From a virus (Duplodnaviria > Caudoviricetes), in IMG/VR virus record IMGVR_UViG_3300046779_001841, positions 160,001 to 224,000 of that record: a DNA stretch of 64,000 nucleotides; one strand, 5' to 3'. The notes beneath the pieces were generated by a model, which was not told the origin of the DNA, did no database searches, and saw nothing but the letters and a program-made list of their open reading frames with translations. This document shows positions 25,956 through 48,523 of this stretch, in pieces. Position 1 is the first letter of the stretch; each line of letters begins with the position of its first letter. Both the position numbers and the translations under genes were made by a program.

Positions 25956-26629
25956 ATTGGTTAAACGATTTTATTCCTATACTACCTTTGAGTATAGAAC
26001 ACCAACTTTATTTAAAGAAAAGAGGTGTAGATGATAACTCGAATGTTATGTTTAAAACTTTTGATATTGTTAATTTTAATATTCCTTGTGATAGGTTCAA
26101 ATCCAATTTTGGCAAATCTGGAGAAAAATTAAAAGATTGTCTGATTATTCCAGCTACTTGTCCTCGTGGTGATATTTATGGTTTTGAAGCTAGATCTTGG
26201 GATGCTAATGGCAATAAAAGAGTTTTCAAATATATGCTTGATCGCAGTCAATGGTTACCATCATTATTAAATGCACATGAAGTTGCAGAAGCATTATGGT
26301 CTAATGGTGATGTTTATTTTGTTGAAGGTGTTTTTGATATGGTTGCACTTAAAAAAGTCATTACATATCCAAATGCAGTAGGTTGCACTATGAGAGCAGG
26401 TGTAGATGATTTAACAATTAATCTTATCCAAAGATTTGCAAACAAGATCAGTACAATTTACATGGCTTATGATAATGATGCGACTGGAAAAATGAAATCC
26501 AATGAAGCTATTTTCAAGTTTAAGAAATTAGGTATTCGTGCAGTCGAATCTAAATATCGTGGTAAAGATCCTAATGATTTATGGACACAACAAGGTGAAG
26601 CGGGTCTTAAAAAATATTTTTTATTTTAG
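25952..26629 (+). CDS. DNA primase catalytic/TOPRIM subunit (no Zn-binding domain)
   Basis: GDIYGFEARS, FVEGVFD, MAYDND.TG and GKDPND are DnaG-type motifs. No N-terminal CHC2 finger. Confidence 0.85.
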   Translation: MNWLNDFIPILPLSIEHQLYLKKRGVDDNSNVMFKTFDIVNFNIPCDRFKSNFGKSGEKLKDCLIIPATCPRGDIYGFEARSWDANGNKRVFKYMLDRSQWLPSLLNAHEVAEALWSNGDVYFVEGVFDMVALKKVITYPNAVGCTMRAGVDDLTINLIQRFANKISTIYMAYDNDATGKMKSNEAIFKFKKLGIRAVESKYRGKDPNDLWTQQGEAGLKKYFLF

Positions 26630-26696
26630 CGAAAAAATTTGTTCAGATAATATAAGCATATATGAGATCCACACACACTTTTTAAAAGGAAAAACT

Positions 26697-27746
26697 ATGG
26701 AAATTCATTTTCATGTTAAACCAAACAGACAACATCTCAGATCATTGATCAATTTGTCTAAAAAGAATAAAACAACAAGAGCAATCAAATTTGAATGTTT
26801 TGATAACACCATTAAAGCCACTGCTACAAATAATGATTTCATGTTATCATGCTTACTAGAAGGTTCTATTTATGAAGATGGTGAAGTCTTTTTACCTACC
26901 GAATCTTTAGATAAAGTGATGAAATCATCTACAATTATCTTAAGAGATACTTCTATTACACATGGTGAAGAACCTGAAGGTCTTTTTTCTCAAGGTGATA
27001 CTGAAACACTTAATTTCACTGAAACACCATTTATCCTAGATGATGATACTTTTGAAACATTTTCTGGTAAAAAGATTACACAAGCACAAGCTATTGAACT
27101 TGGATATGCACTTAAAAATGCAGTAAGGTTCTTATCTAAAGAAGAAGGCAAAAACAAAACCACTGGTGTTTATTATGATCATTTAAATCGTAATGTTGTT
27201 TCTACAGATGGGACTAAACTCTTTACTCAAAAAATCTCATTTGATTTTTTAAATGCTAAAGCACTTATACCTGCAGATGCTATTCCTATTCTTGTTGATA
27301 ATCTTATCAATGCGAATGCGAATGTTAAAGACAATCATTTGAATATTCAAAATGCTACTACAAGATATTCAATTTTATTGATCAATGATGTATTTCCTAA
27401 TTATCAAGTGATTATGCCAAAAGATACTGATTTGGAAAAAATCAATATCTCTGCAAGAGGTAAACAAGCATTGTATGAAAGTGAAAAAGTCATTGATACA
27501 CCTATTATGAAAATAGATGTAGATGAAAGATCAACACTAAGATTGACCAATACAGAAAGTCAGTATGTTTGGCAAGAAAATGAATTTCAAGGTAAAGAAC
27601 GATCTGTTACTTTTAATATTAACAATCTCACTCAAGTTCTTGCATTGACTGAAAACATTTATTGCAATCCTAAAAATTTCTCATCCGCACCATTCTTATT
27701 TACCAAAGATAGTGTTAAAATTTTATTGATGCCTACTAAGGTTTAA
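26697..27746 (+). CDS. dnaN: DNA polymerase sliding clamp (beta-clamp-like)
   Basis: Likely start is ATG 26697 (RBS AAAGGA). ATNND, VSTDGTKL, LIDxVFPNYQVIMP-like and VTFNINNL repeats match the three-domain DnaN pattern, ending LLMP. Confidence 0.8.
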   Translation: MEIHFHVKPNRQHLRSLINLSKKNKTTRAIKFECFDNTIKATATNNDFMLSCLLEGSIYEDGEVFLPTESLDKVMKSSTIILRDTSITHGEEPEGLFSQGDTETLNFTETPFILDDDTFETFSGKKITQAQAIELGYALKNAVRFLSKEEGKNKTTGVYYDHLNRNVVSTDGTKLFTQKISFDFLNAKALIPADAIPILVDNLINANANVKDNHLNIQNATTRYSILLINDVFPNYQVIMPKDTDLEKINISARGKQALYESEKVIDTPIMKIDVDERSTLRLTNTESQYVWQENEFQGKERSVTFNINNLTQVLALTENIYCNPKNFSSAPFLFTKDSVKILLMPTKV

Positions 27747-30700
27747 GATCACCTTTTAATTCTTTAATTTCTTTTTTAAGATTTAATACTTTTTCTTGTT
27801 CATTTACATTTAATGAGATTGCAGTAAGAATATCGCTATCTTGTTCTGCAATACCATACATCATTTGTTCATAAGTCTTATATTGTTTTTCTGATGCTTT
27901 TTTCTTTCTGGCAACTCTAGTAATAAGATTTACTTTCGTTTTCTTCCTATCAAAAACAACAGGCACTTTAAGATTAAATTTAGCTTCAAATTCAGCAATC
28001 ATAGCAAGAGCAGATTCTAAGACAAGTTTTAAATCTTTTGATGTTTTTACTTTAAGTGAACGACTCTTAAAAGCATTTTTTAGATTTTCTTCATAGGTTT
28101 TTAAGATCATTTGTTTTTCTTCTATGGTAGTATGATCTAAAATCTCTTCTCTAAAGAAATCCAACCAACAATTAAGACTATCCACATCAAAAGGTTCAAC
28201 AGGTGAAGATAGATATTCTTCTAATGTTTCATATCCTGCTTCTGCAACCTTAAACTTAACATATTGATTCAATTTCTTAAATGATTTACTTTTGTCATCC
28301 AGATTTAAAGTGTAATCCTGACCTGTACCTACTAATTTCCACCACTCTTCTCCTGCTTTGATAGTTTTACCATTCTCATCTTTAAATGTTATTTCATATA
28401 AACTTAAAATATCATCTATTTTAAAACCACCTTCTATCTTTTTTTGGATATAATATGCACAACGAGCATAACTCATAAGATACCAACTAGAACCGCTTGT
28501 TAAGAAAAATCTTTGATCTTGTTCAAAGACTTTATCTTGAATTGCTTGTTGAATAGTTATTTTATCCACTGGCAAAATAAAAGCATTAAACATTTCTTCT
28601 TGTTTTTCATATTCTATAAGTTTTTCTTCATATTCTCTTTTTCTAATCTGAAATTGTTTTTCTTCTTTCTCATAAGCATCTAGTTTTTGATAATATTCAT
28701 CTAAGGCTTGTGAAAATAATTCTTCTTTAGAATCTTCATCTGTAAAAATACCATTAGAAATATCATTGAGTTTCTGCATTGCTTGATGATGACCTTTCAT
28801 AGCCCATTTAACAATTAGATCATTCCATATATCTAAATTATGATCTTCCAATTTTAAAATTTCACTATTCTTCTCATAAATATATTCAGTTGTTTTATCA
28901 TCAAGAAATCTACCATTTCCCAATTCAATACTTTCAGGTTTCAATAAATTCTTTTCATGGTATGGAAAAACATTATTATGTCTTTCCATGAAATGAAGCA
29001 CCAAACGATTCTTCATAGCATATGCAAATTCTTCATCTAGCTCTCTTGGCTTGAAATAACAATATTTATCTATTTGGTCTTTCCAGTATTGTGGTGTATT
29101 TCCAAAATTTGCAATCAAATCTGTAGTACAGTCATTATAAAATGAAGTAAGATATTTTAGCTTGAAATCAAAATTTTCTAGTACAGGTGGATTGCCAGGG
29201 TGCATTAACTTTAAAGGTTGTAAAACAGGTTGTGGAATAGCTTGAGATGGAAGTGCATCTTTGAAATAAGATTTCCTAGCTTTTATATAATGATTAGCAT
29301 ATTCTTTCAATGCAAATTCATTTAATTGATAACCAATAGGTGCATTATATCCGAATTTTGGCCACACATAATATCCAATAAAAGCAGATGGTTTACCTAT
29401 TCCTGTTTCTGGATCAATTTGAGTAAAATCACCTGCACCATGAGTATATAAGTCAGTGGCACCTTCTTTTTTCATTGCAATAAGTTGAGTGAATAAAGCA
29501 CGATTACCTAGACTATTTGGCGCACATGAAGAAGTCTTAAATAATTTGTTTTCCACTACCATTGCATCCCAATCATCTATATGTCTACTAAGACCATCCA
29601 ACCAGTCACTCTTACTACCAGAACCAGTAAGTTTATTAAAATAAAGATCTAGCATATTACTGGTAACATTTACACTTTGATCAATATCTCCAACATTGAT
29701 ATGTTCAGATGCGACATTTAAGATACCACTAAAACCAGTTAAATCTAACATCTTTTTTAGTTCTTCTTGTCTTCCAGGTTCAAAATTTAATATTTTCTTA
29801 GCTACTGGATGATTAAAACGATTTGGATCTAATGTTGTGTTTGTTAATGGTCTTTCTCTTTTACTTTTTTGAACAGATTCTATCACTGACAATTCTTTTT
29901 TTGTAGGCATTAATGCTCTTTTGAATTTGGATATAGATGTAGAATCGCTTACATTTACTTGTTCGCTAAATTGCACTGGAACATTACCCACAATAATCTT
30001 ATCTACCACTTCATTATAAAATTTTGGTGTGATTGCGATCTCAATATCATCTCCTTCTGTTGCACCTTCTTCTGCATAAACAGAATTGATAAAACGCTCT
30101 TGTTCAAAATCACCACTTAATTTTCTTCTCATCACAATATTATTGTCCCAACCACCTTCATCTAAATGTATCAAGACTTTAAATTTGTTTAATTTAAAAT
30201 CGGTATAAGATGAATTACAAACCATTGTTGCGACTTGATAATTGTCTATAATAAATTCTTTGATTGTCTTATTTGCCCAAGTCATTGATTTTGGATTTGC
30301 AGTCCTTAAAACAAAATTCTGTAAATTTGTTTCTCTTGTCACTTTACCTTTTTTCAATGGCATACCATTTTGATAAAACTGAATATAGTTTGTTAAACAT
30401 AAGACATGGATCTTACCTTTAATCTTATGTGATAAAGATATAACTGTTTCTTTTGCTAAATCATCATCTTGTGTGTAATAAACCACTCTTTTAGAATCAT
30501 TGATAAATTGAATACCTTGTTCGACTGCAGAAATCACTTTACTATTATCTTGTTCAAATTTTTGATCTGGCTTACCTTTCATTCTCAAGTATTTTGCCAT
30601 CGCTTTATTTGGATTAATATTAAACTGGTTCAAGAGATCGATCTTTTCACTTAGTTCATATTTTGCTTTTTCTTTTTCACTTCTGATCGCATCAGTGTCT

Positions 30701-33351
30701 TCTAATTCTAAATATGCTTCTTGCATATCTGTAATTTGTTTATGAACTGATTTTGCAATTTCTCTATATGCTTTAGTAATATCTTTAGACATTGTTGCGA
30801 AGATATAAACATTATTTGTATATGGATAGATTTGACCATCTCTTATCACTATTTGAGTAATGGTGTCTTTTGTAGTTTCAATATCGTTCATTAAATGAAG
30901 ATTGTCTTTTAACCAAACACTAAAAGCCTTACTAAATTCGGGTTTAATACCAACAAACTTACCACCTATATTTATCGCATACCTGTTTAGAAATTCACTT
31001 TCTTTCTCTACATCCAATTTCTGATTATTAGCTAACAATGAAAGTCGATATACTTGTTTAGGTGAACTTTCTAAATTTTTCTTGAGAGTTAAGAAAATCT
31101 TTCTTGGATGTTCTAAAGTTTCAATTTCTTTTCCAATATGGTCAATCAAGATCGCATAATATTCTTTTTTGAAATCAAATTTGTCTTTTAGCATTTGCTT
31201 AAATTTAGTATAACCAATTTCTGTGGTTGCACTTGCGACTACATCTGCATCTTTTAGATTTGCATACATAGATGCTTTAAAATCGCCTACATTTCTATCG
31301 CTTGTGATGATTAAAATTTTGGCACTGGCTTTCTTCTTTAAACTTAATTTAATTGCACCTAGACCAACTAACATCTTATCATAATTATCAGATACACCAC
31401 ATAGACCTTTTAAATCATTCCCATCTAACCATGATAATGCTAGACTTTGTTCTGGTGTTAAATCTGTATAAAAACCACCTAAAGCTATTGCAGAGTATTT
31501 CTTTAAATTTTCTTCATTTTCGGAATGTTCAAGTTCTTCAAATCTTGTGAAATATTTTTGTAATTCTTCATGTGCTTTTTTAGATAACAAACATGAACCT
31601 AAACAATCTTTAATAGTGGCATAGTCATTTGCTTGGAATAAGTAATTGCCATTTTCATTAGTCTTTAATTTTAATCTTTTTAAAGACGATCTTTCATTTG
31701 TTGCATTGACTGGCAAACCTAAAACAAATTTACCATTATTCCAAGTGATATATGGTTCTGCAAGAACATCGGTATTAATAATAAGACTACCATCACTTTG
31801 TTTTAATGTTTCAAAAGTTGAAATCATTTGACCTGTTTTACTCGCTGAGTAGCTTTTACCTTCACCTAAGAATTTACCCATAACATTAACCAAAGGATCT
31901 AGCTGAAAACCTTTAAATTTACCACTAGACACGATATAAATTTTATCTTGTTCAGGTCTTTCAACAGTAACCACTTTTACCATCATTGTTAATTTATATG
32001 GATTAGTAGATGTGTCATTTGAAATCTCTACTTCTCTTTCACTGGAAATATTATCTTCGATTAGGCTTTCCCAATCATCTTCTTTCTCAACTGTGACTTG
32101 AAGATTTTGAAAGCTAAAAGAGATCGTATCATCAATTAAAATAGGTTCTGCTTTTTTAAGAAATTTAGACATCAAATAAGCATTAGCTTTCATTTCTTGA
32201 TAAATTTGATAAGCATTTTTATCCGCAGTGCTTTGAATTTTGCCAAAATTTTCACTATATAGAACTGCTATGTTCTTATTGTTTTCTTCTTGGATCTTTT
32301 TAACTTCTTCAGTCATCTCTGGACTGTTAGTGAAAGATACCGAATCATAATATGAAAGTTCATTAACAAGATCTTTAACTTGTTGAAAAACAAATTCATC
32401 GTCTACATCCAATTCATTTATTGATGATGGTGTTAAACTTAAAAAAATATCAGTAGAGATAAAAACACCACTTTCTATTTCAAAATGAGAACTCGTTTCA
32501 TCAAAACCAGAAAACTTTTCCATAAGTTTCTTAATTTTAGCTTTCTTGATAATCTCTTGTTTATCACTTTTATTTGGAACAAAAGATGTATGATATGCGA
32601 CTTCTAAAGTATCATCTGTTTCTTTTATCGTTTCTGTGAAAGCACCATTTTTTGACAATTCTAGTTTCATTAATGATTTTTCATATTCTATATACTTTTG
32701 TTTGATCTGCTGGATATTTTCAGATTGAACTTTTAAATTACTCTTTTTAGGTTTGATTGTGAAAATATCATATTTTAAACCTTGTAGTGTTGTTCTTGAT
32801 TCCACTTCAATATTTAAATCTCTAATTTTAGCAACTACTTGTATCCATTTAGATACAAGTTGCATAGTCTTTTTGAAAAAGGATTGCAACATCAATTCTT
32901 TGTTCATTTTGATTGCATCTAAATAAACTTTTTCAAAATAAGTATCTTCATCTTTCATTGCTTGTTCGTGTGATGCTTTCATCTTTTCTTCAACAAAAGA
33001 ATCTGTTCGTCTAGCAAGTAAATTTAATTCTTCCCAGATCGCATTTAATTCACTTTCAAGATCACCTTTTTGTAGTTTGATACGATAATAAATAAAGCAA
33101 GATTTCAAATCTTCATAAAAATCCCATTTAATCACATCGTCTTTTTTAGATTGCATTTTTTCTTTGAAGTAATTCACAACATAGTCATCTAAGCCAATTA
33201 GTTGTTCATAATATGTGAAAACAAATTTGCCTTCTTTAGGTAAACGACCTTTAAGAACATTGCTACCATGATTATAAATTTGAATTAAAAATTGTCCCTT
33301 AAAAGGGTTCATACTTCTATTTGGATTATTTACAAGTTTTACCACTGGCAT
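27736..33351 (-). CDS. Giant SNF2-like (degenerate ATPase) + GNAT protein, paralogue A
   Basis: Likely start MPVVKL at 33351 by homology to B and C. Walker A position reads GVSDNYDKM and Walker B LIDHIG (both decayed). GNAT-like APNSLGNRALF...GAG...GYYVWPKFGYNA is retained. Confidence 0.75.
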   Translation of the reverse strand: MPVVKLVNNPNRSMNPFKGQFLIQIYNHGSNVLKGRLPKEGKFVFTYYEQLIGLDDYVVNYFKEKMQSKKDDVIKWDFYEDLKSCFIYYRIKLQKGDLESELNAIWEELNLLARRTDSFVEEKMKASHEQAMKDEDTYFEKVYLDAIKMNKELMLQSFFKKTMQLVSKWIQVVAKIRDLNIEVESRTTLQGLKYDIFTIKPKKSNLKVQSENIQQIKQKYIEYEKSLMKLELSKNGAFTETIKETDDTLEVAYHTSFVPNKSDKQEIIKKAKIKKLMEKFSGFDETSSHFEIESGVFISTDIFLSLTPSSINELDVDDEFVFQQVKDLVNELSYYDSVSFTNSPEMTEEVKKIQEENNKNIAVLYSENFGKIQSTADKNAYQIYQEMKANAYLMSKFLKKAEPILIDDTISFSFQNLQVTVEKEDDWESLIEDNISSEREVEISNDTSTNPYKLTMMVKVVTVERPEQDKIYIVSSGKFKGFQLDPLVNVMGKFLGEGKSYSASKTGQMISTFETLKQSDGSLIINTDVLAEPYITWNNGKFVLGLPVNATNERSSLKRLKLKTNENGNYLFQANDYATIKDCLGSCLLSKKAHEELQKYFTRFEELEHSENEENLKKYSAIALGGFYTDLTPEQSLALSWLDGNDLKGLCGVSDNYDKMLVGLGAIKLSLKKKASAKILIITSDRNVGDFKASMYANLKDADVVASATTEIGYTKFKQMLKDKFDFKKEYYAILIDHIGKEIETLEHPRKIFLTLKKNLESSPKQVYRLSLLANNQKLDVEKESEFLNRYAINIGGKFVGIKPEFSKAFSVWLKDNLHLMNDIETTKDTITQIVIRDGQIYPYTNNVYIFATMSKDITKAYREIAKSVHKQITDMQEAYLELEDTDAIRSEKEKAKYELSEKIDLLNQFNINPNKAMAKYLRMKGKPDQKFEQDNSKVISAVEQGIQFINDSKRVVYYTQDDDLAKETVISLSHKIKGKIHVLCLTNYIQFYQNGMPLKKGKVTRETNLQNFVLRTANPKSMTWANKTIKEFIIDNYQVATMVCNSSYTDFKLNKFKVLIHLDEGGWDNNIVMRRKLSGDFEQERFINSVYAEEGATEGDDIEIAITPKFYNEVVDKIIVGNVPVQFSEQVNVSDSTSISKFKRALMPTKKELSVIESVQKSKRERPLTNTTLDPNRFNHPVAKKILNFEPGRQEELKKMLDLTGFSGILNVASEHINVGDIDQSVNVTSNMLDLYFNKLTGSGSKSDWLDGLSRHIDDWDAMVVENKLFKTSSCAPNSLGNRALFTQLIAMKKEGATDLYTHGAGDFTQIDPETGIGKPSAFIGYYVWPKFGYNAPIGYQLNEFALKEYANHYIKARKSYFKDALPSQAIPQPVLQPLKLMHPGNPPVLENFDFKLKYLTSFYNDCTTDLIANFGNTPQYWKDQIDKYCYFKPRELDEEFAYAMKNRLVLHFMERHNNVFPYHEKNLLKPESIELGNGRFLDDKTTEYIYEKNSEILKLEDHNLDIWNDLIVKWAMKGHHQAMQKLNDISNGIFTDEDSKEELFSQALDEYYQKLDAYEKEEKQFQIRKREYEEKLIEYEKQEEMFNAFILPVDKITIQQAIQDKVFEQDQRFFLTSGSSWYLMSYARCAYYIQKKIEGGFKIDDILSLYEITFKDENGKTIKAGEEWWKLVGTGQDYTLNLDDKSKSFKKLNQYVKFKVAEAGYETLEEYLSSPVEPFDVDSLNCWLDFFREEILDHTTIEEKQMILKTYEENLKNAFKSRSLKVKTSKDLKLVLESALAMIAEFEAKFNLKVPVVFDRKKTKVNLITRVARKKKASEKQYKTYEQMMYGIAEQDSDILTAISLNVNEQEKVLNLKKEIKELKGDLKP

Positions 33352-33410
33352 TTTTATCAAATCCTTTGTTTTGTTTTTAATAACATACAAAGGATTTGAT
33401 AATTTAAAAA

Positions 33411-33680
33411 CTATTCACCATCTTCTGGCAAGATAGGATTTAAAAGTGCTTTATAATCTACAAGAATATCATCATACATTGGAATACGAAATCCATTATC
33501 TCTAAACTTTAAAGCGAAAGCCTTATGAATAGTTGTGATCTCATCCATTGTTAAACCATCTTCTGTAAGCATATCAATGAAGTTTTGTGTACCTGCAAAC
33601 TTTGCTTGAACAATTAAATCTTCATCTGCAATTTGGGAAACATATAAAACCCATTCTTTAAGTGTTTTTGGTTCTGACAT
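33411..33680 (-). CDS. Small hypothetical protein between giant paralogues B and A
   Basis: 89 aa. Starts 1 nt after the stop of B, so probably co-translated. Confidence 0.55.
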   Translation of the reverse strand: MSEPKTLKEWVLYVSQIADEDLIVQAKFAGTQNFIDMLTEDGLTMDEITTIHKAFALKFRDNGFRIPMYDDILVDYKALLNPILPEDGE

Positions 33681-33681
33681 T

Positions 33682-36600: not shown

Positions 36601-39600
36601 TGCAAGTTCTTCAGCTTGATCTATCTTTGGATTACTGAAAGTGTATTCTTTAGGTGGATTACCTTTCATCTTATTAAACTTTTCCATTGCTTTATGTGGG
36701 TTCAAACTGAACATATGCAAGAGAGAAATCTTATCTTTCAAATTACCGACTGCAAAATCTTTTTCTCTTTGTACAGATGCTGGGATTTCTTCTATTGGTG
36801 TGTCCGCCAATAATAAAGAATATCTATCTTTAATCTGGTTCATTTGAACAGAGATAATATCTGAAATTTCTTTATAAGCAACTGCCACTTCTTTTGGCAT
36901 ATTCACATTTGTTGTCAATTTTTGTAATGGTTGTAAAGCTACTTGACCTGCTTCTTCATAATCAACATCCATCTTATCTGCAAAATAAGCATTTTGTTTC
37001 ACCCAGTTATTAAATTGATGTCTTACTTCAGGTTTAACACCTACAAACTTGCCACCAATATTTACTGCATACTTATCCATAAATGCTTTTTCTTTAGTAG
37101 GATCGACTGGATTACCTGTTGATAAAGAAACAAATCTAAACAAATCCATAGGTGATTTTTCTAAAGCACTACCTGTTAATAAAATCTTTCTTGGATGTTT
37201 TACATTACTGATAGCTTGTGCTTTCTTTCCTTTAAGTGCTTCATTGACTTCATCAAAGATCATGCAATAATATTGTTTGAAATCAGCACCTTCTTCATAC
37301 ATTCTAACAAATTCGGTATATCCAATTTCTGTTGTTCGATTTGTTAAATTTTCAGCTACTGCTTCTTCTAAGAAGAATTTCAATTCACCCATGAAGTTAC
37401 CAACAAGACGATCTGGACCCACAATTAAAAACTTTGCATTTGGTTTTTCTTTACTTGCAAGTTGCATAGATGCAACACCAACTAAAGTCTTACCAACACC
37501 AGTATCTAATGCCATCACACCTTTAAGACCATTAGATTGTAACCATGCTAATGCTTCAATTTGTTTATTGTTAAACTTTAATGGTTTATTTGGCAATACT
37601 TCTGCTTTGAAACCACCGATTGCTTGTGGTGTAAATTTTGCTAAATTCTCTGGTTGTAAAGCACGATCTTTTTGTAAAAGCATCTTGTAGTATTTTTGTA
37701 ATTCTTCATGTGCTTTCTTAGACATTAAGCATGAACCAAGACAATCCTTGATAGCTTCATAATCATCACCTTCAAAATAGAAAGACCACCTGCGTTTTTC
37801 ACTACCAGGAACTACTTCCATTGATGCTCTTGTGTCGGATAATTTTTTAATCGCTTTTCTTTCTGGAGTATGTTTAATATCATTTGGCAAACCAATTAAG
37901 AAACGATCTCTTGCCCATGTAATATATGGTTCTTCTAAAGCATCATAATTTACTTTTACTTCACCACTATCTGTTTCGATACTTTCATAAATAGATACAA
38001 TCTCACCATTTGAACTTACAGAATAACATTTACCATCACCTGTTAATCTACCTGTTGCATTTGCCAAGTCTTCAACAGAAAATCCTTTAAAGGGTCCTCT
38101 AGTAATAATATCTTTAGTGATACCATTAATAGTAGTAGTCTTTACTTTGACCATGTGTGCAAATTTTAATGGATTTGTTCTTTTAACTGCAGTATCGTCT
38201 GATAATTCAATTTCTCTTTCAACACCAGGAATAGCATCTACCATTTCATCAGATAACTTTTCTACAGTTACAGATGGTATATTTAATTTAACTTCTGTAA
38301 AGATTGGAATAGTGTTGTTTAAAGAATCCAACTTTGGATTGCCATCACTACCCATTTCAATTTCTTGAACTGGTTGTCCATCTACCATTAAAACATTTCC
38401 TGCATTGTCTTTCTTATATACAGGCACTTTTTTAATATGTTTAAAGACGAGTTCGTGTTTCTTTACTCTTTGACCTGCTTCATTTGTAACAGTTCTTGTA
38501 ACAATCTCTGGCAAAGCATCTCTTATACTCTTATTCTTCAAATCGCTTTCTAAACGCTTTTGTTGATAAACTTCATAAGCACTTAAACGATTTTCACCTT
38601 CTATAGTGCCAAGATGTTGACTATAAATGATATTTGCTTTCTTTAAAAACTCTTCTTGTTTTTCTTTGATTTCTTGTTGAAGTGTTTTCCCATTCACGAT
38701 AGAATTTGGTTTTTCTAATTCTTTTAATTTTTTATAAGCATCAGAAATGTTTTTCTTCTTATCGTTTAACCATTCTTGTCTTTCTTGTTTTTTGGCTTGT
38801 GCAAAATTTACCCAAGACATAAGATCTTCATATCGTTCTTCTGTCTTAAGAACAGCAGAAAGGTTATTAAAAATCTCTTTATATGGTTCAAGTTCAATAT
38901 CAAAGCCCTGTGCATTAAACCATTGTTTCAAAATAAATTGATATTTACTCGCACTATCAATCTTTGATTGTTTCAATTTAGTCAATAAAGATTTTAGTGA
39001 AAATTGAACACCTGTTGGAATGCGAGGAGATATTAGATAATAATTCATTTCAATATAATTATAGATTGTTAAATCAAATTTATCGTTTTTCTCAATAATT
39101 GATTGGATGAATAAGCCTACTTGAGAATACCTTCTTTCAGTTTCTTCTTTAAGACTTCTTGTTATGGCTTTTTGATTAAAAGATAGTGCTTTATCAAGTG
39201 CAACAGATTCAGTGTCTGTAGTAAAATCTATACCTGTACCTGCTCTTGTCATGAGAGCAAGTACAGCATCGTTTTCTATAAACTTTTTCTTTCTTTGTTT
39301 TAAAACATCAGATGGAGAGATATTTTGTTCTTTATTGTTGAAATAGAGATCTAACATATCACCATCAACAGATTTATAATCTGTATATGCACCACTTCTT
39401 GATAGTTTGTCTTTAATCAAAGATTGTTCATATTGTGAATACTTTTCTTTGAGTTCTCTTACTCGTTCAAGTTGTAATACTGCATCTGTTTTTGTTTCAT
39501 GTAATGTGAAAACATCAAATTTAGCACCACTTGTTGTAAATTTCTCACTAATTTCATATGGAATATTTTTAGCTTTACAAACTAACTGAATCCATGCAGA

Positions 39601-40107
39601 CAATAATCTTAAACTTTCCTTGAAGAATGGCTTCTTATTCAAGGTCTTGATCATTTCATATGCAGGTGATGTAACAGTTTCTAATTTTGCATCTGGATCG
39701 TTTGTAAAATTTGTCCAAATCTTCTTTAATTCTTCTTCAATAAAAGCATCCACTTTATTGACTTGAATACGCAAATCAGTCCAAATATCTGTTAAGACAT
39801 CATCATCTTCTCTATTGATGAAAAAAGTCTTATACCACAAATATGCTTTTGCCAAATTCTCATCCAAAGGATACTTGGAAAAAGAAGTATCTATCTTTTT
39901 AGATGCTACTTTTTCTGTTAATTCATCAATCAGATATTCTTCAAGTTCAATCAATTCTACATAATGATTAAACAAATAAGCACCTGCACCTTGTACTTTA
40001 CCTTTGGTTTGGTCATTTCGACTTGGATTTTTGACATACCATAAGAATTGACCCTTAAATGGATTTCGACTTCTATTTGGATTACTGATAAGTTTTACAA
40101 CAGGCAT
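33682..40107 (-). CDS. Giant SNF2-family ATPase + GNAT protein, paralogue B (intact ATPase motifs)
   Basis: QIEALAWL, ALDTGVGKT (Walker A), LIVGP, IFDEVN (Walker B), LLTGS, SSYARGFNLQ, QRTARAFRQGQ. GNAT-like APNSIGNRALF...GAGG...GYYVWPKFGYNA. Confidence 0.85.
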   Translation of the reverse strand: MPVVKLISNPNRSRNPFKGQFLWYVKNPSRNDQTKGKVQGAGAYLFNHYVELIELEEYLIDELTEKVASKKIDTSFSKYPLDENLAKAYLWYKTFFINREDDDVLTDIWTDLRIQVNKVDAFIEEELKKIWTNFTNDPDAKLETVTSPAYEMIKTLNKKPFFKESLRLLSAWIQLVCKAKNIPYEISEKFTTSGAKFDVFTLHETKTDAVLQLERVRELKEKYSQYEQSLIKDKLSRSGAYTDYKSVDGDMLDLYFNNKEQNISPSDVLKQRKKKFIENDAVLALMTRAGTGIDFTTDTESVALDKALSFNQKAITRSLKEETERRYSQVGLFIQSIIEKNDKFDLTIYNYIEMNYYLISPRIPTGVQFSLKSLLTKLKQSKIDSASKYQFILKQWFNAQGFDIELEPYKEIFNNLSAVLKTEERYEDLMSWVNFAQAKKQERQEWLNDKKKNISDAYKKLKELEKPNSIVNGKTLQQEIKEKQEEFLKKANIIYSQHLGTIEGENRLSAYEVYQQKRLESDLKNKSIRDALPEIVTRTVTNEAGQRVKKHELVFKHIKKVPVYKKDNAGNVLMVDGQPVQEIEMGSDGNPKLDSLNNTIPIFTEVKLNIPSVTVEKLSDEMVDAIPGVEREIELSDDTAVKRTNPLKFAHMVKVKTTTINGITKDIITRGPFKGFSVEDLANATGRLTGDGKCYSVSSNGEIVSIYESIETDSGEVKVNYDALEEPYITWARDRFLIGLPNDIKHTPERKAIKKLSDTRASMEVVPGSEKRRWSFYFEGDDYEAIKDCLGSCLMSKKAHEELQKYYKMLLQKDRALQPENLAKFTPQAIGGFKAEVLPNKPLKFNNKQIEALAWLQSNGLKGVMALDTGVGKTLVGVASMQLASKEKPNAKFLIVGPDRLVGNFMGELKFFLEEAVAENLTNRTTEIGYTEFVRMYEEGADFKQYYCMIFDEVNEALKGKKAQAISNVKHPRKILLTGSALEKSPMDLFRFVSLSTGNPVDPTKEKAFMDKYAVNIGGKFVGVKPEVRHQFNNWVKQNAYFADKMDVDYEEAGQVALQPLQKLTTNVNMPKEVAVAYKEISDIISVQMNQIKDRYSLLLADTPIEEIPASVQREKDFAVGNLKDKISLLHMFSLNPHKAMEKFNKMKGNPPKEYTFSNPKIDQAEELAVQFLTGNAPKRTLYFTEDNDVAKKTVIKLSLRIPTKVHALCLSNAIVFYQAGKPLTKGRVTKKTKIQNFMVKELTEEQIKERLEQAGLTTEQIEKRMGRTAAATVEPQEEDMTWAVNTVKKFIAKNNQVSTMVANSSYARGFNLQQFKAVVHLDRDGWDSEELKQRTARAFRQGQEDAVIEVMVDAVMPQEMAGDITIDKLRGLVHEVDQKFFSDIITTSGAINLSANYDSIEHSKVTEKATKPNLENFARALAPTREMQLKIEERERGLREDPVKYTQLDPNRFNHPSFQNLSASSKKTVDLMGLSGIANVAPEHIQFNYGNASSYGDWILTMERTINNDYVKNNIFKTSKCAPNSIGNRALFTQLISMKKEGKSTLKTLGAGGWGSFNPETGLSETNEFIGYYVWPKFGYNAQVGIQVDSMKERAKKFEKMVIEKLGSSSVSNTTFNLVVPVQPQKPVRPERITTGIDPNTLIGQRSTGDAMLEQKKSLAIGIFGVSNYDELKRRIERSLGSNVSDFLNYMYFAKRNIDEEKEKHINLRLVINQAYRNNLYPLTTFNTIDPMTLEPGSGRFYDHRDRAYMVHYNNTQRQGALNEFTNRLNLFNQFVTPLLTQQNSVLITLFNKIQDTKRPLDQAEIQDVYDLAVQRTEEANIDFSRKLAEYEVKMEEYNQAMVIYNQSLANYDAEKQRFEAESYKFINAFSLDLKEIRSDIQAGVYSSEIKNWLGNDGATAYDVRYAKAAYIIQKSGKISPNGYIDIVDLYDITSRDENGKTFRAGEEYWKRYGSSQHYELDLNSNSKSYKKLTKYMNQKAKEAGFETLEQYLASPVEPFNTTRENCWRRFFEDDLPSVGRLPKSDQIQILKSYSKDLKDVLLKMEESKRIELLKKIRTWKERNPEASNIRVAKKKFADEEFQSYEQMMAESAEQDSELLSSIDQELANEEKVKEIQKEISVLKGDLKPVSNPFTKKKGK

Positions 40108-40192
40108 TTTAAACCCCTTTTCTTTCTAAAAAAAAGTAATCTTTCTATGATACATACATTCCATAAATTTAATAATTATTAAACCACCAACA

Positions 40193-43100
40193 CTATTTCT
40201 TTTTTCCAAATGGATTTGTTACTGGTTTCAAATCACCTTTTAATACTGATATTTCTTTTTCTACTTGTTTCACTTTTTCTTCATTCGCTAGTTGTTCATC
40301 TAAAGCAACCATCATATCGCTATCTTGCTCTGCCATTTCATACATCATTTGTTCATAAGTCTTTGTACCACTCTCTATTGAAGCAAAACGAATATTTTCA
40401 GTAATGCGATTGAGCATCTTCCATTTTTTAAAAGTTTCTAAAAACTCTCCTACATAATATTGAGTTTCATTCATAAGAACATATTTTAAATCATTGCGAT
40501 AAGCCTTAATTACTTGTAACTTTTCTTCTCTGTTCATTTTAATATTGCCATCATTCAAGAAAGAAATCCAGCAAGTAATCTTTTTAGTATTAAATGGTTC
40601 AATAGGTAAGGATAAGTATTCTTCCAAGTTTTCACAACCAGCTTCTTTGACTTTATGATTCACATACTTTGTTAGTTTTTTATATGACTTGGAATTTGGA
40701 TCTACACTTAACTCGTATTCTGTACCCGTACCTACAAATTTCCACCACTCTTCTCCTGCTTTAAAGATTTTCCCATCGGATTCTTTAAATGTTATTTCAT
40801 ATAAGTCTAAGATTTCTATCAAACGACTTATTTTATTTGATAATTTTAGATAGAACGCAGACTTAGCATATCTTACTTTCCACCAATCTTTACCATTTCC
40901 CAACCATGATTTAATTTCTGATGTATATACATCTGCATCAAGATCTGCTTGAATTTCTTTTTTATCTATTTTGAAACTTGAGATGTCATTAATTTTTTGT
41001 TGAAAAAATCCATTAAATTCTTTCTCATATCTTGCATGAATTTGTTCATATACACTCACTGCTTGATTATACTCTTCTAAATCTTTTTGATATTTCTCTA
41101 CTCTCTCATCATAGATTTTCATCGTTTCTTCATATTCAATATTATTTTCTATTTGCACTTGCTTCATGTCTTCATAAATAGGTTGCATTTCTTCTACCGA
41201 TAATGGCATATCGGTATCTTGGATCTTATTGAATAATGCTATTTTTTCTGGATAATTTTTCATCAATGGTGTTGCAAAAAAATCCCATTGACTATTTAGT
41301 CTTTTTTCCCTTTCTATATCCTGTAAAACAGCATTGTGTAATTGCCAATCTACCATATCTTGAGGATATTTAGGTGTTTCTGTTTTTTTGAGATTCTTTT
41401 TATGAAAGGGAAAAAATTGTATTTCAAATCCAGAATAATAAGCAATTCTATTTTCTATATGATATGCTACATCTTCTGAATAGTTCTTTTTTTTAAAATA
41501 TCCATAATCTCTTACAATTTTAAAATCATCTTTTGCAAATTGAGAACCCATAGCACCTAGTCTTTGATCAACATATAAAGCAAATGCACGAACAGTTTTT
41601 TGTGGTGTAGTCGAAGCCAGTATCGCTTTTAATTGTAATTGTTTTCTTTCTTCACTAGAACCACTATTTGTCATCAATTCTTCTATGTCTAAATCTAATT
41701 CATAGTTTTCTTTGTATGGTCGTTCTCCTACATCTAGTGGATCAGGTGCTATGGGTTTTACTCCATCTGTAATCGCTTCAGTCCATTTTAATTTTTGGCT
41801 TACCATCTTTGCAAAGATGTTCGCAAATTCTTCTATTTGATCTAAATTAAGAAGAACTTCAGCATTATAACCAAATTTCGGCCACACATAATATCCTATG
41901 TAATTTTGACCTTTTGCTTCTCCTGTTTCAGGATCAAAAGAATTAAAACTACCTGCACCTAAACAAGCGATAGCATCTAATTTAGCTTTTTTGACTGCAA
42001 CAAGTTGACTAAATAACACATGAGTTCCTAATCCATTTGGCGCACAATAATTTGTTGTAAAAGCATCATTCCAAATATAATTCTCACCATAATATTTTCT
42101 TCTATCTGTACCATGTAGTGTAGTAATCCAATCTCCAACAGATTTCATTTCATTTTCTCTATCCGATGTCAATCTAAATTTAATATGTTCTGATGCAATA
42201 TTCGTAATACCTGTAAATCCTGTTAAATCTAGCATTTCTTTTTCATGTTCTGATAGATTTTCCATCGATGGATGGTTAAAACGATTTGGATCTAATTGTG
42301 TATATTTAATTGGATCTTCTCTTAATCCTTTTTCTCTCTCTTCTATCTTTGCCAACATTTCTCTTGTTGGCAATAATGCTCTAGTAAAATTCTCTAAATT
42401 CACTTTCTTGCTTGTTGTTAATTTTTCTATCGCTTCATATTTTTTTGTCAAATCCAAAGCACCACTTTCTCTAAGAATTTCACTAAAGAACTTTTGATCT
42501 ACCTCTTGCACTCGATCTCTTAGTTCATCTATTGATGTTGATCCTCCTACCACTGCATCCAAGATATATTCTGTTACAGGTTCTTCTTTTCCTACACCTT
42601 GTAGTCTTGCAGTTCTTTGCTTTAATTCTTCGCTATCCCATCCATCTCTATCTAAATGCACCACTGCATTGAATTGTTGTAAATTAAATCCCCTTGAATA
42701 AGATGAATTGGCAACCATCGTTGCGACTTGATTATTCTTAGCAATAAATTCCTTTACAGTCTTTACTGCCCAAGTTACATCTTCTTCTCCTATTTCATCT
42801 TCTTCTCTTGCCACTCTTCTCATTCTATCGTCTATCTCAACTTGTGATAATCCAGACCTTGACAAATTCTTTAGAATTTCTTCATCTTTAAGTTCTTCCA
42901 ACATAAAATTTTGAAGTTTGGTATTCTTATTCACAACACCTTTCTTTAAAGGCTTTCCTGCTTGATAAAAGACAATACTATCAGATAAACATAGTGCATG
43001 GATCTTGGTCGGTATTCTTAATGAAATCTTAATGATTGTCTTTTTTGCCACATCTGCATCTTCAGTGAAATATACTGTTCTCTTTGAATTTTCTACTAAA

Positions 43101-46100
43101 TGAACTGCAAGTTCTTCAGCTTGGTCAATTTTAGGATTACTGAATGTATATTCTTTTGGTCTATTTCCTTTTAATCTATCATACTGCACCATTGCTTTAT
43201 GTGGATTTAAACTAAATAGATGTAGTAATCCAATCTTATCTTTCAAGTTTCCTAATGCAAAATCTTTTTCTTTTTGTAAATCAGCTGGCATATCCATCTG
43301 GTTGAAAGAAAGATTAGAATATCTAACTGACATCTCTGTTAAAACTTCTTGAATTTCTTGAGCAATATCTTGATATGCACTCGCTACTTCGTCTGGCATA
43401 TTTACAGTTTGTGTTGTTTTATATAGATTTGTATAAATATACTTTTCCATAAAATGAATGTTTTGTTTCATCCATGTATAAAACTCATCTTTCACTTCAG
43501 GTTTAATGCCTACAAACTTACCACCTATCTCAACTGCATATTTCTCAACAAATGCTTTCTCTTTGTCTTTATCTACTACATTTCCAGTCGATAAATATAC
43601 AAGCCTAAATAAATCCAAAGGTGAAGATTGAATTGCACTATCTGTTAATAAAATCTTTCTTGGATGTTTTACATTTGTAATCGCTTCAACTTTATCACTA
43701 TTCATTTCTATATTCGCATCATCTAACACTAAACAATAATATTGTTTGAAATTAAAGTTTTGCTTATATCTCTGGATATATTCCGAATATCCTATCTCTT
43801 CTATGCTTTGTCTTAAATTAAAAATATAAAGATATTCTATATATTCTTCTATTCCAGAGATATATGAACCTACAAAACGATCTGTATTTACTATTAAAAA
43901 CTTCACATCAGGTAGCTTCTGTGTTGCAAGTATCAAACTTAATATAAAAAAAATCTTATTCTCTCCATATTCTCTAGGTAGTGATACAACTCCTTTGTAA
44001 TCATTTTTCTCTAACCATGCTAAAGCATTAATCTCACCTGTTGAAAACGCTAAGTATGGATTAATTCCTTTTAATTTTTCTTCTTGATAGTTTTCTCTCT
44101 CAGTAATACTTAATTTTAATTTTAACATCTCATAATACTTACGCAACTCTTCATGTGCTTTCTTAGACATTAAACATGAACCTAAACTATCTTTTATCAC
44201 TTCATAATCACTACCACCAAAATAAAAAGATAGATGACTACCTGCAACCATCTCCATTGATGTTCTATACCGAACTAAATTTTTTAATGTCTTAATTTCT
44301 GGTGCATACTTCTTATCTTTTGGCAAACATATCAAGAAACGATCTCTTGCCCAAGTAATATATGGTTCTTCTAACACATCAATATTTACTTTTACTTCTC
44401 CACTATCTATATCTATACTCTCATACCTAGACACTATCTCACCTTTTGTATTCATAGAATAACTTTTACCATCACCTATGATGCGACCTGTAATATTTGA
44501 TAAATCTTCAACAGAAAATCCTTTGAAGGGTCCTCTAGTAATAATATCTTTAGTGATACCATTAATAGTGGTGGTCTTTACCTTCACCATGTGTGTAAAT
44601 CTTAATGGATTATCTGTATGATCGTCTGATAACTCGATTTCTCTTTCTACACCAGGAATAGCATCTATCATTTCATCAGATAGTCTATCTACTGAATATG
44701 ATATTGTATCTAAGACTACATCTTTAAATACTGGTATAAGATTGCCTTTACTATCAAGTATGGTTTCTTGAACAGGTTGTCCATCTACCATTAAAACATT
44801 TCCTGCATTGTCTTGCTTATATACAGGTATCTTGTTTAAGTTTCTAAATACCAATTCATGTTTCTTTACTTTTTGACCTGCTTCATTAACTGTTCTTGTA
44901 ACAATCTCTGGCATATTGTTTTTTGAAAATGTTTTTCGTAATTCACTTTTCAATTTAATTTGCAGATAAACATCATAGGCACTTTGATTATAGTCAGGTT
45001 CGATCACACCAAATTTTTCACTATATATAGTTTTCGCTTTCTTTAAATACTCTTCTTGTTTCTCTTGAACTTCTTGTTGAAGTGTTTTCCCATCTACAAC
45101 AAGACTTGAATTTTCAAATTTTTTCAATTTTTGATAGAAGGATTGTACATTTTCTCTTACTTCATTAAACTTTTCATCTTCTCTTGCTTTTACACTACGA
45201 GCATAAGATTGCATATCAAGAAGGATTAAAAAATCATCTTGTGATGGTATTATATCTTTCAACATTAACCAAGTATTGGTATGTGGTTCTTGATTTATAT
45301 TCCAACCTTGTTCTGCCATCCATTCTGTTAAAATATCATAATAAGCATCTGCACTACCTATTTTAGATTTTCTCAATTTACCCATCAAAGATTTTTGTGC
45401 GGATACACTACTAAGTAGTTTTTTATTGACTATCCTATATTCAATAAAATTGAGAATGGACACAAACATTTTATTTTGTATCGCAAATCTTAGATTTTTA
45501 GTCATTTCACTATCTTGTTTTGAACCTATTTCACCTATACAAGCCGACCAAACTCGTTCGTTCTTTTCTCTTTCTAAAAATGAAATTGCTTCTTTCTCAC
45601 TAGATAATAATCTTTCAGATGTCATTCTATATTCATTTGAAAAATCTATTTCATCTCTTTCATTTACTAGATTGCTAATATATGTTTGTTTTCTTTCTTT
45701 GATTAGATCTTCTCTTTTCACTTGAATATTCGTTTGATCAAAATACAATTCCAAGAAATCATCATCAAGTCTTTTTGTTTGTGTAAATGCACCTGTTCTT
45801 AATAATTTCTCTTTAATCAAAGATTTCTCATACTCACTATATTTCTTTTTGATCTCTTTTACTTGTTTTACTTGCACATCCACAGGCACTGATTTACTTG
45901 ATACCTTGAAAGTATCAAATTTTGCACCACCAGGTAAAATTCTTTCGGTAATCTCATATTGAATATTTTTATATTTGCATACCAACTGAATCCATGCAGA
46001 CATCAGTTTTAAACTTTCCTTGAAGAATGGCTTCTTATTCAAAGTATTGATAAAAGGATAGATCTTCTCTTTTATATAATTATCACCAGTCCAAATCTTC

Positions 46101-46465
46101 TTCAATTCTTCTTCAATGAAAGCATCTACTTTGTTGATATTGATTCGCAAATCAGTCCAAATATCTGTTAATTCATTATCGTATTCTTCATTCTTAAAGA
46201 AAGTCTTATACCATAGATATGCCTTAGACATATCTTCATCCAAAGGATACTTTGAAACATTTGTAAAATCACCATTTTCTACTTTTTTTGTTAAGTAGTC
46301 ATTAAGATGATCTTCAAGTTCAATCAATTCTACATAATGATTGAATAAGAAATTCCCAGCACCTTGCACAACACCATTATTATGGTTTCGCATAGCGAGT
46401 AGGAATTGACCTTTAAATGGATTTAAACTTCTATTTGGATTACCAATAAGTTTTACAACAGGCAT
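40193..46465 (-). CDS. Giant SNF2-like (degenerate ATPase) + GNAT protein, paralogue C
   Basis: Collinear with B. Walker A position SLPREYGEN, Walker B LDDAN, motif III LLTDS, motif VI QRTARLQG. GNAT-like APNGLGTHVLF...GAG...GYYVWPKFGYNA is retained. Confidence 0.8.
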   Translation of the reverse strand: MPVVKLIGNPNRSLNPFKGQFLLAMRNHNNGVVQGAGNFLFNHYVELIELEDHLNDYLTKKVENGDFTNVSKYPLDEDMSKAYLWYKTFFKNEEYDNELTDIWTDLRININKVDAFIEEELKKIWTGDNYIKEKIYPFINTLNKKPFFKESLKLMSAWIQLVCKYKNIQYEITERILPGGAKFDTFKVSSKSVPVDVQVKQVKEIKKKYSEYEKSLIKEKLLRTGAFTQTKRLDDDFLELYFDQTNIQVKREDLIKERKQTYISNLVNERDEIDFSNEYRMTSERLLSSEKEAISFLEREKNERVWSACIGEIGSKQDSEMTKNLRFAIQNKMFVSILNFIEYRIVNKKLLSSVSAQKSLMGKLRKSKIGSADAYYDILTEWMAEQGWNINQEPHTNTWLMLKDIIPSQDDFLILLDMQSYARSVKAREDEKFNEVRENVQSFYQKLKKFENSSLVVDGKTLQQEVQEKQEEYLKKAKTIYSEKFGVIEPDYNQSAYDVYLQIKLKSELRKTFSKNNMPEIVTRTVNEAGQKVKKHELVFRNLNKIPVYKQDNAGNVLMVDGQPVQETILDSKGNLIPVFKDVVLDTISYSVDRLSDEMIDAIPGVEREIELSDDHTDNPLRFTHMVKVKTTTINGITKDIITRGPFKGFSVEDLSNITGRIIGDGKSYSMNTKGEIVSRYESIDIDSGEVKVNIDVLEEPYITWARDRFLICLPKDKKYAPEIKTLKNLVRYRTSMEMVAGSHLSFYFGGSDYEVIKDSLGSCLMSKKAHEELRKYYEMLKLKLSITERENYQEEKLKGINPYLAFSTGEINALAWLEKNDYKGVVSLPREYGENKIFFILSLILATQKLPDVKFLIVNTDRFVGSYISGIEEYIEYLYIFNLRQSIEEIGYSEYIQRYKQNFNFKQYYCLVLDDANIEMNSDKVEAITNVKHPRKILLTDSAIQSSPLDLFRLVYLSTGNVVDKDKEKAFVEKYAVEIGGKFVGIKPEVKDEFYTWMKQNIHFMEKYIYTNLYKTTQTVNMPDEVASAYQDIAQEIQEVLTEMSVRYSNLSFNQMDMPADLQKEKDFALGNLKDKIGLLHLFSLNPHKAMVQYDRLKGNRPKEYTFSNPKIDQAEELAVHLVENSKRTVYFTEDADVAKKTIIKISLRIPTKIHALCLSDSIVFYQAGKPLKKGVVNKNTKLQNFMLEELKDEEILKNLSRSGLSQVEIDDRMRRVAREEDEIGEEDVTWAVKTVKEFIAKNNQVATMVANSSYSRGFNLQQFNAVVHLDRDGWDSEELKQRTARLQGVGKEEPVTEYILDAVVGGSTSIDELRDRVQEVDQKFFSEILRESGALDLTKKYEAIEKLTTSKKVNLENFTRALLPTREMLAKIEEREKGLREDPIKYTQLDPNRFNHPSMENLSEHEKEMLDLTGFTGITNIASEHIKFRLTSDRENEMKSVGDWITTLHGTDRRKYYGENYIWNDAFTTNYCAPNGLGTHVLFSQLVAVKKAKLDAIACLGAGSFNSFDPETGEAKGQNYIGYYVWPKFGYNAEVLLNLDQIEEFANIFAKMVSQKLKWTEAITDGVKPIAPDPLDVGERPYKENYELDLDIEELMTNSGSSEERKQLQLKAILASTTPQKTVRAFALYVDQRLGAMGSQFAKDDFKIVRDYGYFKKKNYSEDVAYHIENRIAYYSGFEIQFFPFHKKNLKKTETPKYPQDMVDWQLHNAVLQDIEREKRLNSQWDFFATPLMKNYPEKIALFNKIQDTDMPLSVEEMQPIYEDMKQVQIENNIEYEETMKIYDERVEKYQKDLEEYNQAVSVYEQIHARYEKEFNGFFQQKINDISSFKIDKKEIQADLDADVYTSEIKSWLGNGKDWWKVRYAKSAFYLKLSNKISRLIEILDLYEITFKESDGKIFKAGEEWWKFVGTGTEYELSVDPNSKSYKKLTKYVNHKVKEAGCENLEEYLSLPIEPFNTKKITCWISFLNDGNIKMNREEKLQVIKAYRNDLKYVLMNETQYYVGEFLETFKKWKMLNRITENIRFASIESGTKTYEQMMYEMAEQDSDMMVALDEQLANEEKVKQVEKEISVLKGDLKPVTNPFGKKK

Positions 46466-48279: not shown

Positions 48280-48523
48280 CTTCCCTTCCTATAAATACAT
48301 TGTTAGAATTGACCCATGTGTGTTTTGGCAATGATCTTATACTAAATAAGATCATAGACTTTCTTATATTATCAGAATATATATAATAACCTTTTCCTTG
48401 TATATCACCAATACCATTTCTTTTTTGTGTAGATGATGTACTTGATAGAAATGTTGTAAATTGTTTAGCTGAATACAAACTATTAGTATCCCAATAAATA
48501 AAACAAAAAGGGTAGTTATCCAT
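48272..48523 (-). CDS. Small tandem-paralogue protein 1 (FIGRE family)
   Basis: 83 aa. Shares AK..T...S, G..IY..N, R.S..LF..RSL.KH.W and FIGRE with the next two ORFs. Confidence 0.65.
   Translation of the reverse strand: MDNYPFCFIYWDTNSLYSAKQFTTFLSSTSSTQKRNGIGDIQGKGYYIYSDNIRKSMILFSIRSLPKHTWVNSNNVFIGREDE

Follow-up and report, generated by a model that had tools for sequence, protein, structure and literature searches.

Giant SNF2- and GNAT-like proteins of an uncultured jumbo phage: a tandem family with one intact and two degenerate sets of ATPase motifs

Phage P1 DarB, a head-packaged anti-restriction methyltransferase-helicase, is the cited archetype of SNF2-containing polyvalent proteins, and phage GNAT effectors are exemplified by Rac of phiKMV-like phages, which acetylates the alpha subunit of RNA polymerase (RNAP), and by AcrVA5, which acetylates Cas12a. 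The polyvalent proteins of phages and conjugative elements were treated by Iyer, Burroughs, Anand, de Souza and Aravind in 2017 (PMC5512222), whose lists include SWI2/SNF2 ATPases and a pair of GNAT families; one of these families is found next to ART domains and has a representative in an uncultured marine phage. Here, we analyse three giant genes, A, B and C, that lie in tandem in a 64,000-nucleotide stretch of DNA (hereafter, the window; positions 160,001 to 224,000 of the IMG/VR record IMGVR_UViG_3300046779_001841) from an uncultured jumbo phage. We consider it reasonably probable that they are tandem duplicates making up one family, whose giant, multi-domain products are phage proteins of the polyvalent type. 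At the level of motifs, an earlier note on this DNA was correct in predicting one intact ATPase and two pseudo-ATPases.

Like the described polyvalent proteins, A, B and C are giant polypeptides that join unrelated modules of a shared repertoire, here an SWI2/SNF2 ATPase-type region and a GNAT-like domain within 1871–2141 aa. The likeness, already drawn in the earlier note, extends to the homologues of the GNAT-like domain, which are fused to MuF, portal, ART, zincin/ATLF, InPase and SNF2 modules (matches to SNF2/ResIII, ADPrib_exo_Tox, ATLF, Phage_Mu_F, Phage_portal_3, InPase and DRAT), and the best viral structural match of this domain is a protein labelled "phage head morphogenesis domain". 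The giants differ from polyvalent proteins in their fixed architecture, in being encoded by a single-copy core gene across a jumbo-phage clade, and in the position of that gene within a replication block. They also lack a methyltransferase, a MuF and a Pfam LPD domain, their N-terminal 800 residues are unmatched, their GNAT-like domain is split by a 330-residue insert, and they include ATPase-dead tandem paralogues. With P1 DarB they share a very large size and an SF2 helicase-like module, but DarB has a DNA methyltransferase domain and the giants have none. The analogy to DarB that had been suggested thus fails on the defining domain, and membership in the DarB group (an N6-adenine methyltransferase upstream of SNF2) was rejected, as Pfam, PHROGs and NCBIfam found no methyltransferase family in A, B or C. 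Rac and AcrVA5, for their part, are small, single-domain proteins without a motor or a WW subdomain, and show no sequence similarity to the giants.

The only long open reading frames (ORFs) in 27736-46465 are 27736..33390, 33682..40107 and 40193..46465, all on the minus strand (Table 1). They are collinear and their translations align end to end—as expected from the earlier description of three collinear paralogues—with identities of 36-38% between A and B, 35-36% between A and C, and 51% between B and C. Searching the complete 316,221-bp genome with tblastn revealed no fourth paralogue, leaving exactly A, B and C. Each consists of ~800 N-terminal residues, a two-lobed SNF2-like ATPase region, an insert-split GNAT-fold domain and a conserved helical tail. 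The TTG start of the A frame is most likely an over-extension, judging from the sequence: the ATG at 33351, 13 codons inside the frame and equipped with an AAAGGA ribosome-binding site, begins a protein (MPVVKL...) with the same N-terminus as B and C.

Table 1 Features of the giant-gene trio in the window.
Feature	Position	Strand	Description
Gene C	40193..46465	-	2090 aa; degenerate ATPase motifs; GNAT-like module, N-terminal signature and C-terminal tail kept
Gene B	33682..40107	-	2141 aa; ancestral-type copy; SF2/SNF2 motifs I, II, III and VI intact
Small ORF	33411..33680	-	89 aa, acidic; between B and A; part of the unit
RNA hairpin	33354..33402	-	Between small ORF and gene A; conserved
Gene A	27736..33351	-	1871 aa from ATG 33351; A-type, predicted pseudo-ATPase paralogue
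SF2/SNF2-like ATPase region of B	35908..37602	-	Residues 836-1400; Pfam matches and motif alignment
Degenerate ATPase-equivalent regions	A 29965-31464; C 42431-44056	-	Motif alignment
GNAT-like domain of B	34018..35697	-	N-half 35338-35697; insert 34303-35337 (~345 aa); C-half 34018-34302
GNAT-like domain equivalents	A 28108-29745; C 40514-42229	-	Counterparts of the domain of B

In the ATPase region, B reads LDTGVGKT at motif I (DTGVGKT at 37486-37506), FDEVN at motif II, LLTGSA at motif III and QRTARAFRQGQ at motif VI. The corresponding segments are SDNYDKM (31372-31392), LIDHIG and FLTLKK in A, with a motif VI shortened by six residues, and PREYGEN (43958-43978), LDDAN, LLTDSA and QRTARLQGVGK in C; every motif previously quoted for the three genes was recovered in place. 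B thus has the motif set of an SF2/SWI2-SNF2 ATPase, and A and C do not. Its Pfam matches to SNF2-rel_dom (29.9 bits; cut-off 24.9), Helicase_C (24.1; 23.5) and ResIII (22.6; 22.5) all lie above their cut-offs, the Helicase_C match of C (17.1 bits; 23.5) lies below, and A has no Pfam helicase or SNF2 match. Motif alignment and Pfam cut-offs therefore agree that only B has an intact SNF2-type ATPase site. PADLOC, PHROGs and NCBIfam returned trivial helicase-level matches for B only, and none for A, C or the small ORF downstream of B. In an alignment of 18 family proteins, all 14 B-type or single-copy homologues keep LDTG[VI]GKT, FDE[VI]N, LLT[GA]SA and QRTARA[FY]RxGQ.

Among proteins in the PDB, sequence matches of B are HELLS, SsoRad54 and SMARCA5. 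With these SWI2/SNF2 ATPases and with bacterial RapA, B has motifs I-VI in common, and a stretch of ~175 residues between its motifs III and IV occupies the position of the SNF2 helical insert; the similarity is, however, weak (E 7e-5 at best) and falls mostly in lobe 1. The nucleotide-binding residues of these enzymes are missing in A and C.

The three proteins also share a C-terminal module that, on the evidence of sequence and structure models, very probably has a GNAT fold. GYYVWPKFGYNA is present in A, B and C, and the N-half of the domain in B reads CAPNSIGN...GYYVWPKFGYNA. While the motif by which the earlier note had defined the module stands in all three proteins, the domain turned out to be longer than the note had drawn it: a second conserved half (AGEEWWK...KSYKKL..Y...K; AGEEYWK...KSYKKL in B) lies ~330 residues downstream, past a helical insert. 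Profile searches with the module region identified 423 homologues at E<=1e-3 among 1.84 billion proteins, defining a widespread domain that has no Pfam model and often comes in 2-4 tandem copies per homologue. In short homologues, the second block (G..WW...G......FDL...S.S...L..Y...K) follows GYYxWPxLGYD at a distance of 20-40 residues; in the giant family, the same two blocks are ~285-350 residues apart, arguing that the domain of the giants is split by a helical insert of ~330 residues.

An AlphaFold model built from 17 sequences had a mean confidence (pLDDT, predicted local distance difference test) of 68.8, and one from a 107-sequence alignment spanning the insert had 92.4. The order of elements in the second model—alpha-alpha, beta-beta, alpha (after the APNSIGN loop), beta, alpha (GYYVWPKF), beta—would correspond to the beta3-beta4-alpha3-beta5-alpha4-beta6 expected of a GNAT. 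Foldseek match lists were rich in GNATs, and cluster matches in the AlphaFold database (AFDB) included N-acetyltransferase entries at probabilities of 0.99-1.00. The sole matches of a PDB profile search were two GNATs aligned at motif A (E 1-2), and hhalign against a single E. coli RimI sequence placed motifs A and B in canonical register, a result that was not significant (P 0.069). One homologue, P0022, has a Pfam Acetyltransf_1 (PF00583) match of 21.3 bits (cut-off 20.7) inside one of its domain copies, which is the sole link to that family and a transitive one. Fold searches, motif register and this match together support the GNAT-like character proposed for the module. A first alignment of the region gave nothing meaningful against PDB profiles, and fold searches with a 621-residue model (PDB Foldseek and VIA-wide) mostly picked up the helical insert and told nothing about the GNAT core. 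Conserved throughout the family are G1474, R1505, N1514, P1524, G1528, Q1535, G1572, Y1573, W1576 and G1580 in the first half and G1947, W1951, G1955, S1968, Y1977 and K1981 in the second; A and B retain all conserved positions, and C deviates at R1505 (beside an indel) and at G1543.

Several observations weigh against reading the giants as polyvalent proteins of the SNF2-GNAT kind. No GNAT model in Pfam, NCBIfam or PHROGs matches A, B or C, so the GNAT assignment rests on fold and remote-homology evidence, and PF00583 matched nothing in the phage's whole genome even at E<=10. No residue of the GNAT-like domain can be assigned as catalytic. The N-terminal 800 residues have no detectable relatives outside the family: PDB profiles matched them only with de novo helical bundles, and ESM Atlas feature searches of two segments, N1 (1-260) and N2 (600-840), gave no usable matches. 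The selection estimates given below are rough, as synonymous divergence (dS) is ~1 and saturated; YN00 mostly failed through this saturation, hence the use of NG86 only. Finally, the giant gene is a conserved, single-copy core gene beside those for clamp, clamp loader, primase and DnaB, a combination that is unusual for a variable polyvalent effector as well as for a packaged protein expressed late.

This genomic setting bears on where the giant protein might act. On the minus strand, the trio forms the end of a block of replication genes (SNF2-like helicase, DnaB, primase finger, S-adenosylmethionine [SAM] decarboxylase), and the clamp gene runs towards it from the other side. In five related loci (L001, L003, L004, L006 and L007), as in the window, the giant gene lies between the SAM decarboxylase–primase–DnaB block and the clamp, and in three others (L005, L008 and L010) it comes directly after three genes that encode a clamp loader, a KOW/NusG-like protein and a product with a faint match to sigma70_r4. 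The slot of these last three giants is occupied on a 204-kb contig (GCA_041447055.1) by the gene for P0022, a 976-aa protein with three tandem GNAT-like domains. We regard delivery with the virion as possible but doubtful, and a replication- or transcription-coupled role inside the cell as ranging from doubtful to not quite even.

One form of such an intracellular role, framed by analogy to RapA or UvsW, would be a DNA remodeller that is not injected and that uses its GNAT module to modify proteins situated on phage DNA, namely the polymerase, the clamp or proteins of the nucleoid, with A and C as regulatory paralogues. We consider this alternative less likely than not. It would account for a conserved core gene in replication-gene surroundings (window, L001, L003-L008 and L010) and for P0022 in an equivalent slot, and it agrees with the recombination or RNAP-recycling functions proposed for jumbo-phage SNF2 helicases (PMC7824862). 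The other architectures of the GNAT-like domain (MuF, portal, ART and ATLF), however, point to packaged effectors, and in L009 the giant gene comes after two giant genes, one of them with an Mtd_N domain.

Several further features of the neighbourhood and of the genome were recorded. The genome record (316 kb) is rated complete, with a GC content of ~30%. We found no close cultured relative of the phage; its DnaB shares 49% identity with that of a 485-kb uncultured phage, DNA and protein searches with B found no match among 50,697 phage records, and tblastn against these records found none for A or C either. A and the clamp (processivity factor) gene (26538-27746) converge, and their 3′ ends share 11 bp (27736-27746). 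Between the genes for DnaB and the primase finger, three ORFs of 81-83 aa (48272-49023, minus strand) stand in tandem, none of them with a PHROG match; L007 has ORFs of 85, 84 and 67 aa at this position. The stand-alone SNF2-like helicase is 534 aa long in the window (51230-52834) and 722 aa in the 350-kb relative L001 (3816-5984), where the greater length and a Pfam Intein_splicing match argue for an intein insertion. On the contig of P0022, clamp loader, NusG-like gene and a 202-aa gene precede P0022, with an InPase gene and an IS605 OrfB nearby. In L010, a stand-alone ART-PolyVal (PF18760) protein (1324-2373) and a D12 methyltransferase are encoded a few kb upstream of the giant gene; polyvalent-type modules thus exist as separate genes in the phage clade. 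A scan of the trio for sigma-70 promoters and terminators found no more sites than in shuffled sequence.

As for activity, we consider it fairly probable that the GNAT-like module is an acyltransferase. That the GYYVWPKFGY module has the fold without being an acetyltransferase, serving instead as a binding module or as an enzyme that draws an acyl or aminoacyl group from a different donor, seems to us somewhat unlikely. Consistent with such a use, GNAT hidden Markov models match none of A, B and C, most giants have Ser in place of the first Gly in the Q/RxxGxG/A loop, an extra conserved C-terminal subdomain containing WW is not found in canonical GNATs, and the 2-4 tandem copies seen in many homologues are unusual for enzymes. 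On the other hand, the positions of the coenzyme A (CoA) pyrophosphate loop and of the alpha4 Tyr (PxGxG, GYYxWPxxGY) are conserved family-wide, as are R1505 and N1514, and the register agrees with that of RimI and of the two GNATs from the PDB.

To place the two degenerate copies, we counted giant genes in the contig DNA of 13 related loci (contigs of up to 350 kb) from a clade known through metagenome assemblies of diverse origin, among them Tara Oceans samples. Eleven loci (L001, L002, L004, L005, L006, L008, L009, L010 and L012-L014) have one ATPase-intact copy, two (L003 and L007) have two copies in the order B-type, small ORF, A-type, and three copies occur in the window only; none of the 13 loci has a C-like copy. 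A collection of 5.8 billion proteins returned B of the window and neither A nor C from the same contig, so that the absence of C-like proteins there is weak evidence. The usual state in the clade is a single ATPase-competent gene translationally coupled to an ORF of 84-100 residues. By the counts in contig DNA, the dead copies were therefore added in particular lineages to a protein that elsewhere acts on its own. This pattern does not support the fixed machine of one motor and two scaffolds that the earlier note had envisaged: the active/inactive trio recurs in none of the related loci, even if the A-type gene does in two. Orthologues of B (P0004-P0006) are 59-61% identical to it, and those of A (P0018 from L003 and P0020 from L007) have the same degenerate motifs as A itself.

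The A-type copy is an old, maintained pseudo-enzyme, co-inherited with B and evolving under purifying selection at about the rate of B. Its constraint is apparent from three lines of evidence. The A-type subtree (A,(L003,L007)) mirrors that of B with similar branch lengths; the dead RecA lobes of A and P0018 are 61% and 70% identical, compared with 57% for the whole protein; and omega (dN/dS, by NG86 and hence rough) is 0.235 in the dead SF2 region versus 0.245 for the live pair of B and P0004. The earlier expectation that the dead copies are not decaying was thereby supported. All three A-type proteins (A, P0018 and P0020) have identical degenerate motifs and stop at KGDLKP, lacking the VSNPFxKKKG tail. 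An origin of the A-type inside the B subclade was rejected by the approximately unbiased (AU) test (p 1.4e-6, with a long-branch caveat), which implies either that the duplication is older and that copies were later lost, or that long branches misled the analysis.

C, in contrast to A, arose by duplication of B in the window alone and evolves fast. It is the sister of B (SH-aLRT 99) on a branch of 0.84 versus 0.30, that is, ~2.8 times faster, and its divergence is concentrated in the RecA1/ATP-binding lobe, where it is 44% identical to P0004 as compared with 88% for B; it matches B in the conservation of the N1 segment, of the GNAT C-half and of the tail. Between B and C, the helical insert has a rough NG86 omega of 0.93 and RecA1 one of 0.56. 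Neutral decay of C is argued against by its open frame of 2090 codons at 30% GC.

Two elements between B and A suggest how the copies are expressed. The ATG of the 89-aa ORF lies 1 nt past the stop codon of B, and an ORF of 84-100 aa follows the intact copy by 0-3 nt in every related locus for which the downstream region was examined. The 89-aa ORF has no family match, and a complex prediction of B 1440-2060 with its product scored 0.04, which is no answer either way. The hairpin has a stem of 16-17 bp, the 3′ arm of which takes in the AAAGGA Shine-Dalgarno sequence of A and stops 2 nt short of the ATG. In the window its folding energy is -21.5 kcal/mol (z -7.6), a hairpin at the same position has z -8.1 in L003 and z -5.9 in L007—hence in three of three phages with an A-type gene—and three stem pairs are changed on both sides between the window and L003. 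The spacer between C and B has no comparable structure (z -0.2). From its sequence context, the hairpin over the ribosome-binding site of A suggests that A is translated separately from B, probably at a lower level.

These elements can be combined into a hetero-oligomeric, DNA-tracking acyltransferase, in which B and its coupled 89-aa partner would be the motor and the hairpin-throttled A-type protein, together with C, would supply pseudo-ATPase subunits; we consider this improbable. We think it equally unlikely, or slightly more so, that the three proteins make up the obligate heteromer of the earlier note, with one motor, two dead scaffolds and three acetyltransferases, a machine that would travel in the virion and, after injection, acetylate nucleoid or defence proteins of the host. 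A-type and B are, to be sure, co-inherited in three phages with A under purifying selection, the near-identical N-terminal signatures and conserved C-terminal helices of all paralogues could mediate assembly, and homologous GNAT-like domains occur on head-associated MuF and portal fusions. Yet the single intact copy in 11 related loci argues that the giant protein functions without dead partners, no related locus has C, the conserved hairpin sequesters the ribosome-binding site of A, arguing against equimolar co-translation, and the genes lie in a replication block rather than among head genes. The opposite view, that A and C are decaying, pseudogene-like duplicates without a function of their own, would explain the loss of Walker A and further ATPase motifs in both, the ~2.8-fold rate of C and the elevated B/C omega values, but is very hard to reconcile with frames that stay open over 1871 and 2090 codons in a genome of 30% GC, with identical degenerate motifs and a B-like rate among A-type orthologues of three phages, and with a C that keeps N1, GNAT C-half and tail as well as B does.

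Under the reading that we favour—a tandem-duplicated family of one polyvalent-type protein—B would track or remodel double-stranded DNA with ATP and so carry its GNAT module, which is probably a transferase dependent on acyl-CoA, to targets associated with DNA. An older duplicate, the A-type, lost its nucleotide-binding motifs in the sub-lineage of the window and has stayed with B under purifying selection; B itself duplicated once more, in the window only, and the resulting copy, C, has lost those motifs too and is evolving fast, mainly in the ATP-binding lobe. Without a motor but with the GNAT module and the terminal regions retained, A and C are most likely specialised or differently regulated variants and not obligate subunits.

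The terminal regions themselves carry short conserved signatures. NR[ST]xxP[FYW][KR]G stands within the first ~20 residues of each giant (for example, 40048-40107 for B) and also of P0016, P0026, P0034 and P0093, and is kept in members with overall identities of 22-25%; it may represent a targeting, packaging, recognition or partner-binding peptide. At the other end, the tail V[ST]NPFxKKKG follows KGDLKP in B (33685-33717), C (40196-40222) and nearly all single-copy homologues, and is missing from the A-type proteins. The tail region of B has sub-threshold matches to the C-terminal part of MatP (Pfam E 0.03, NCBIfam E 0.003).

Pairs of an ATPase and a pseudo-ATPase are known in other systems. 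Should the hetero-oligomer exist, it would be their phage counterpart, and a core function of an uncultured jumbo-phage clade. As the data stand, the three-gene arrangement is best read as one phage's expansion of the known polyvalent SNF2-GNAT protein type, not as a conserved machine. The analysis defines an unannotated core protein of ~2000 residues, with a coupled small ORF, for this clade, and a widespread domain without a Pfam model (423 homologues) is now read as GNAT-like and placed in the polyvalent-effector repertoire. The locus also provides a clear natural example of motor-domain pseudo-enzymes selected beside their active parent, with copies of two ages.

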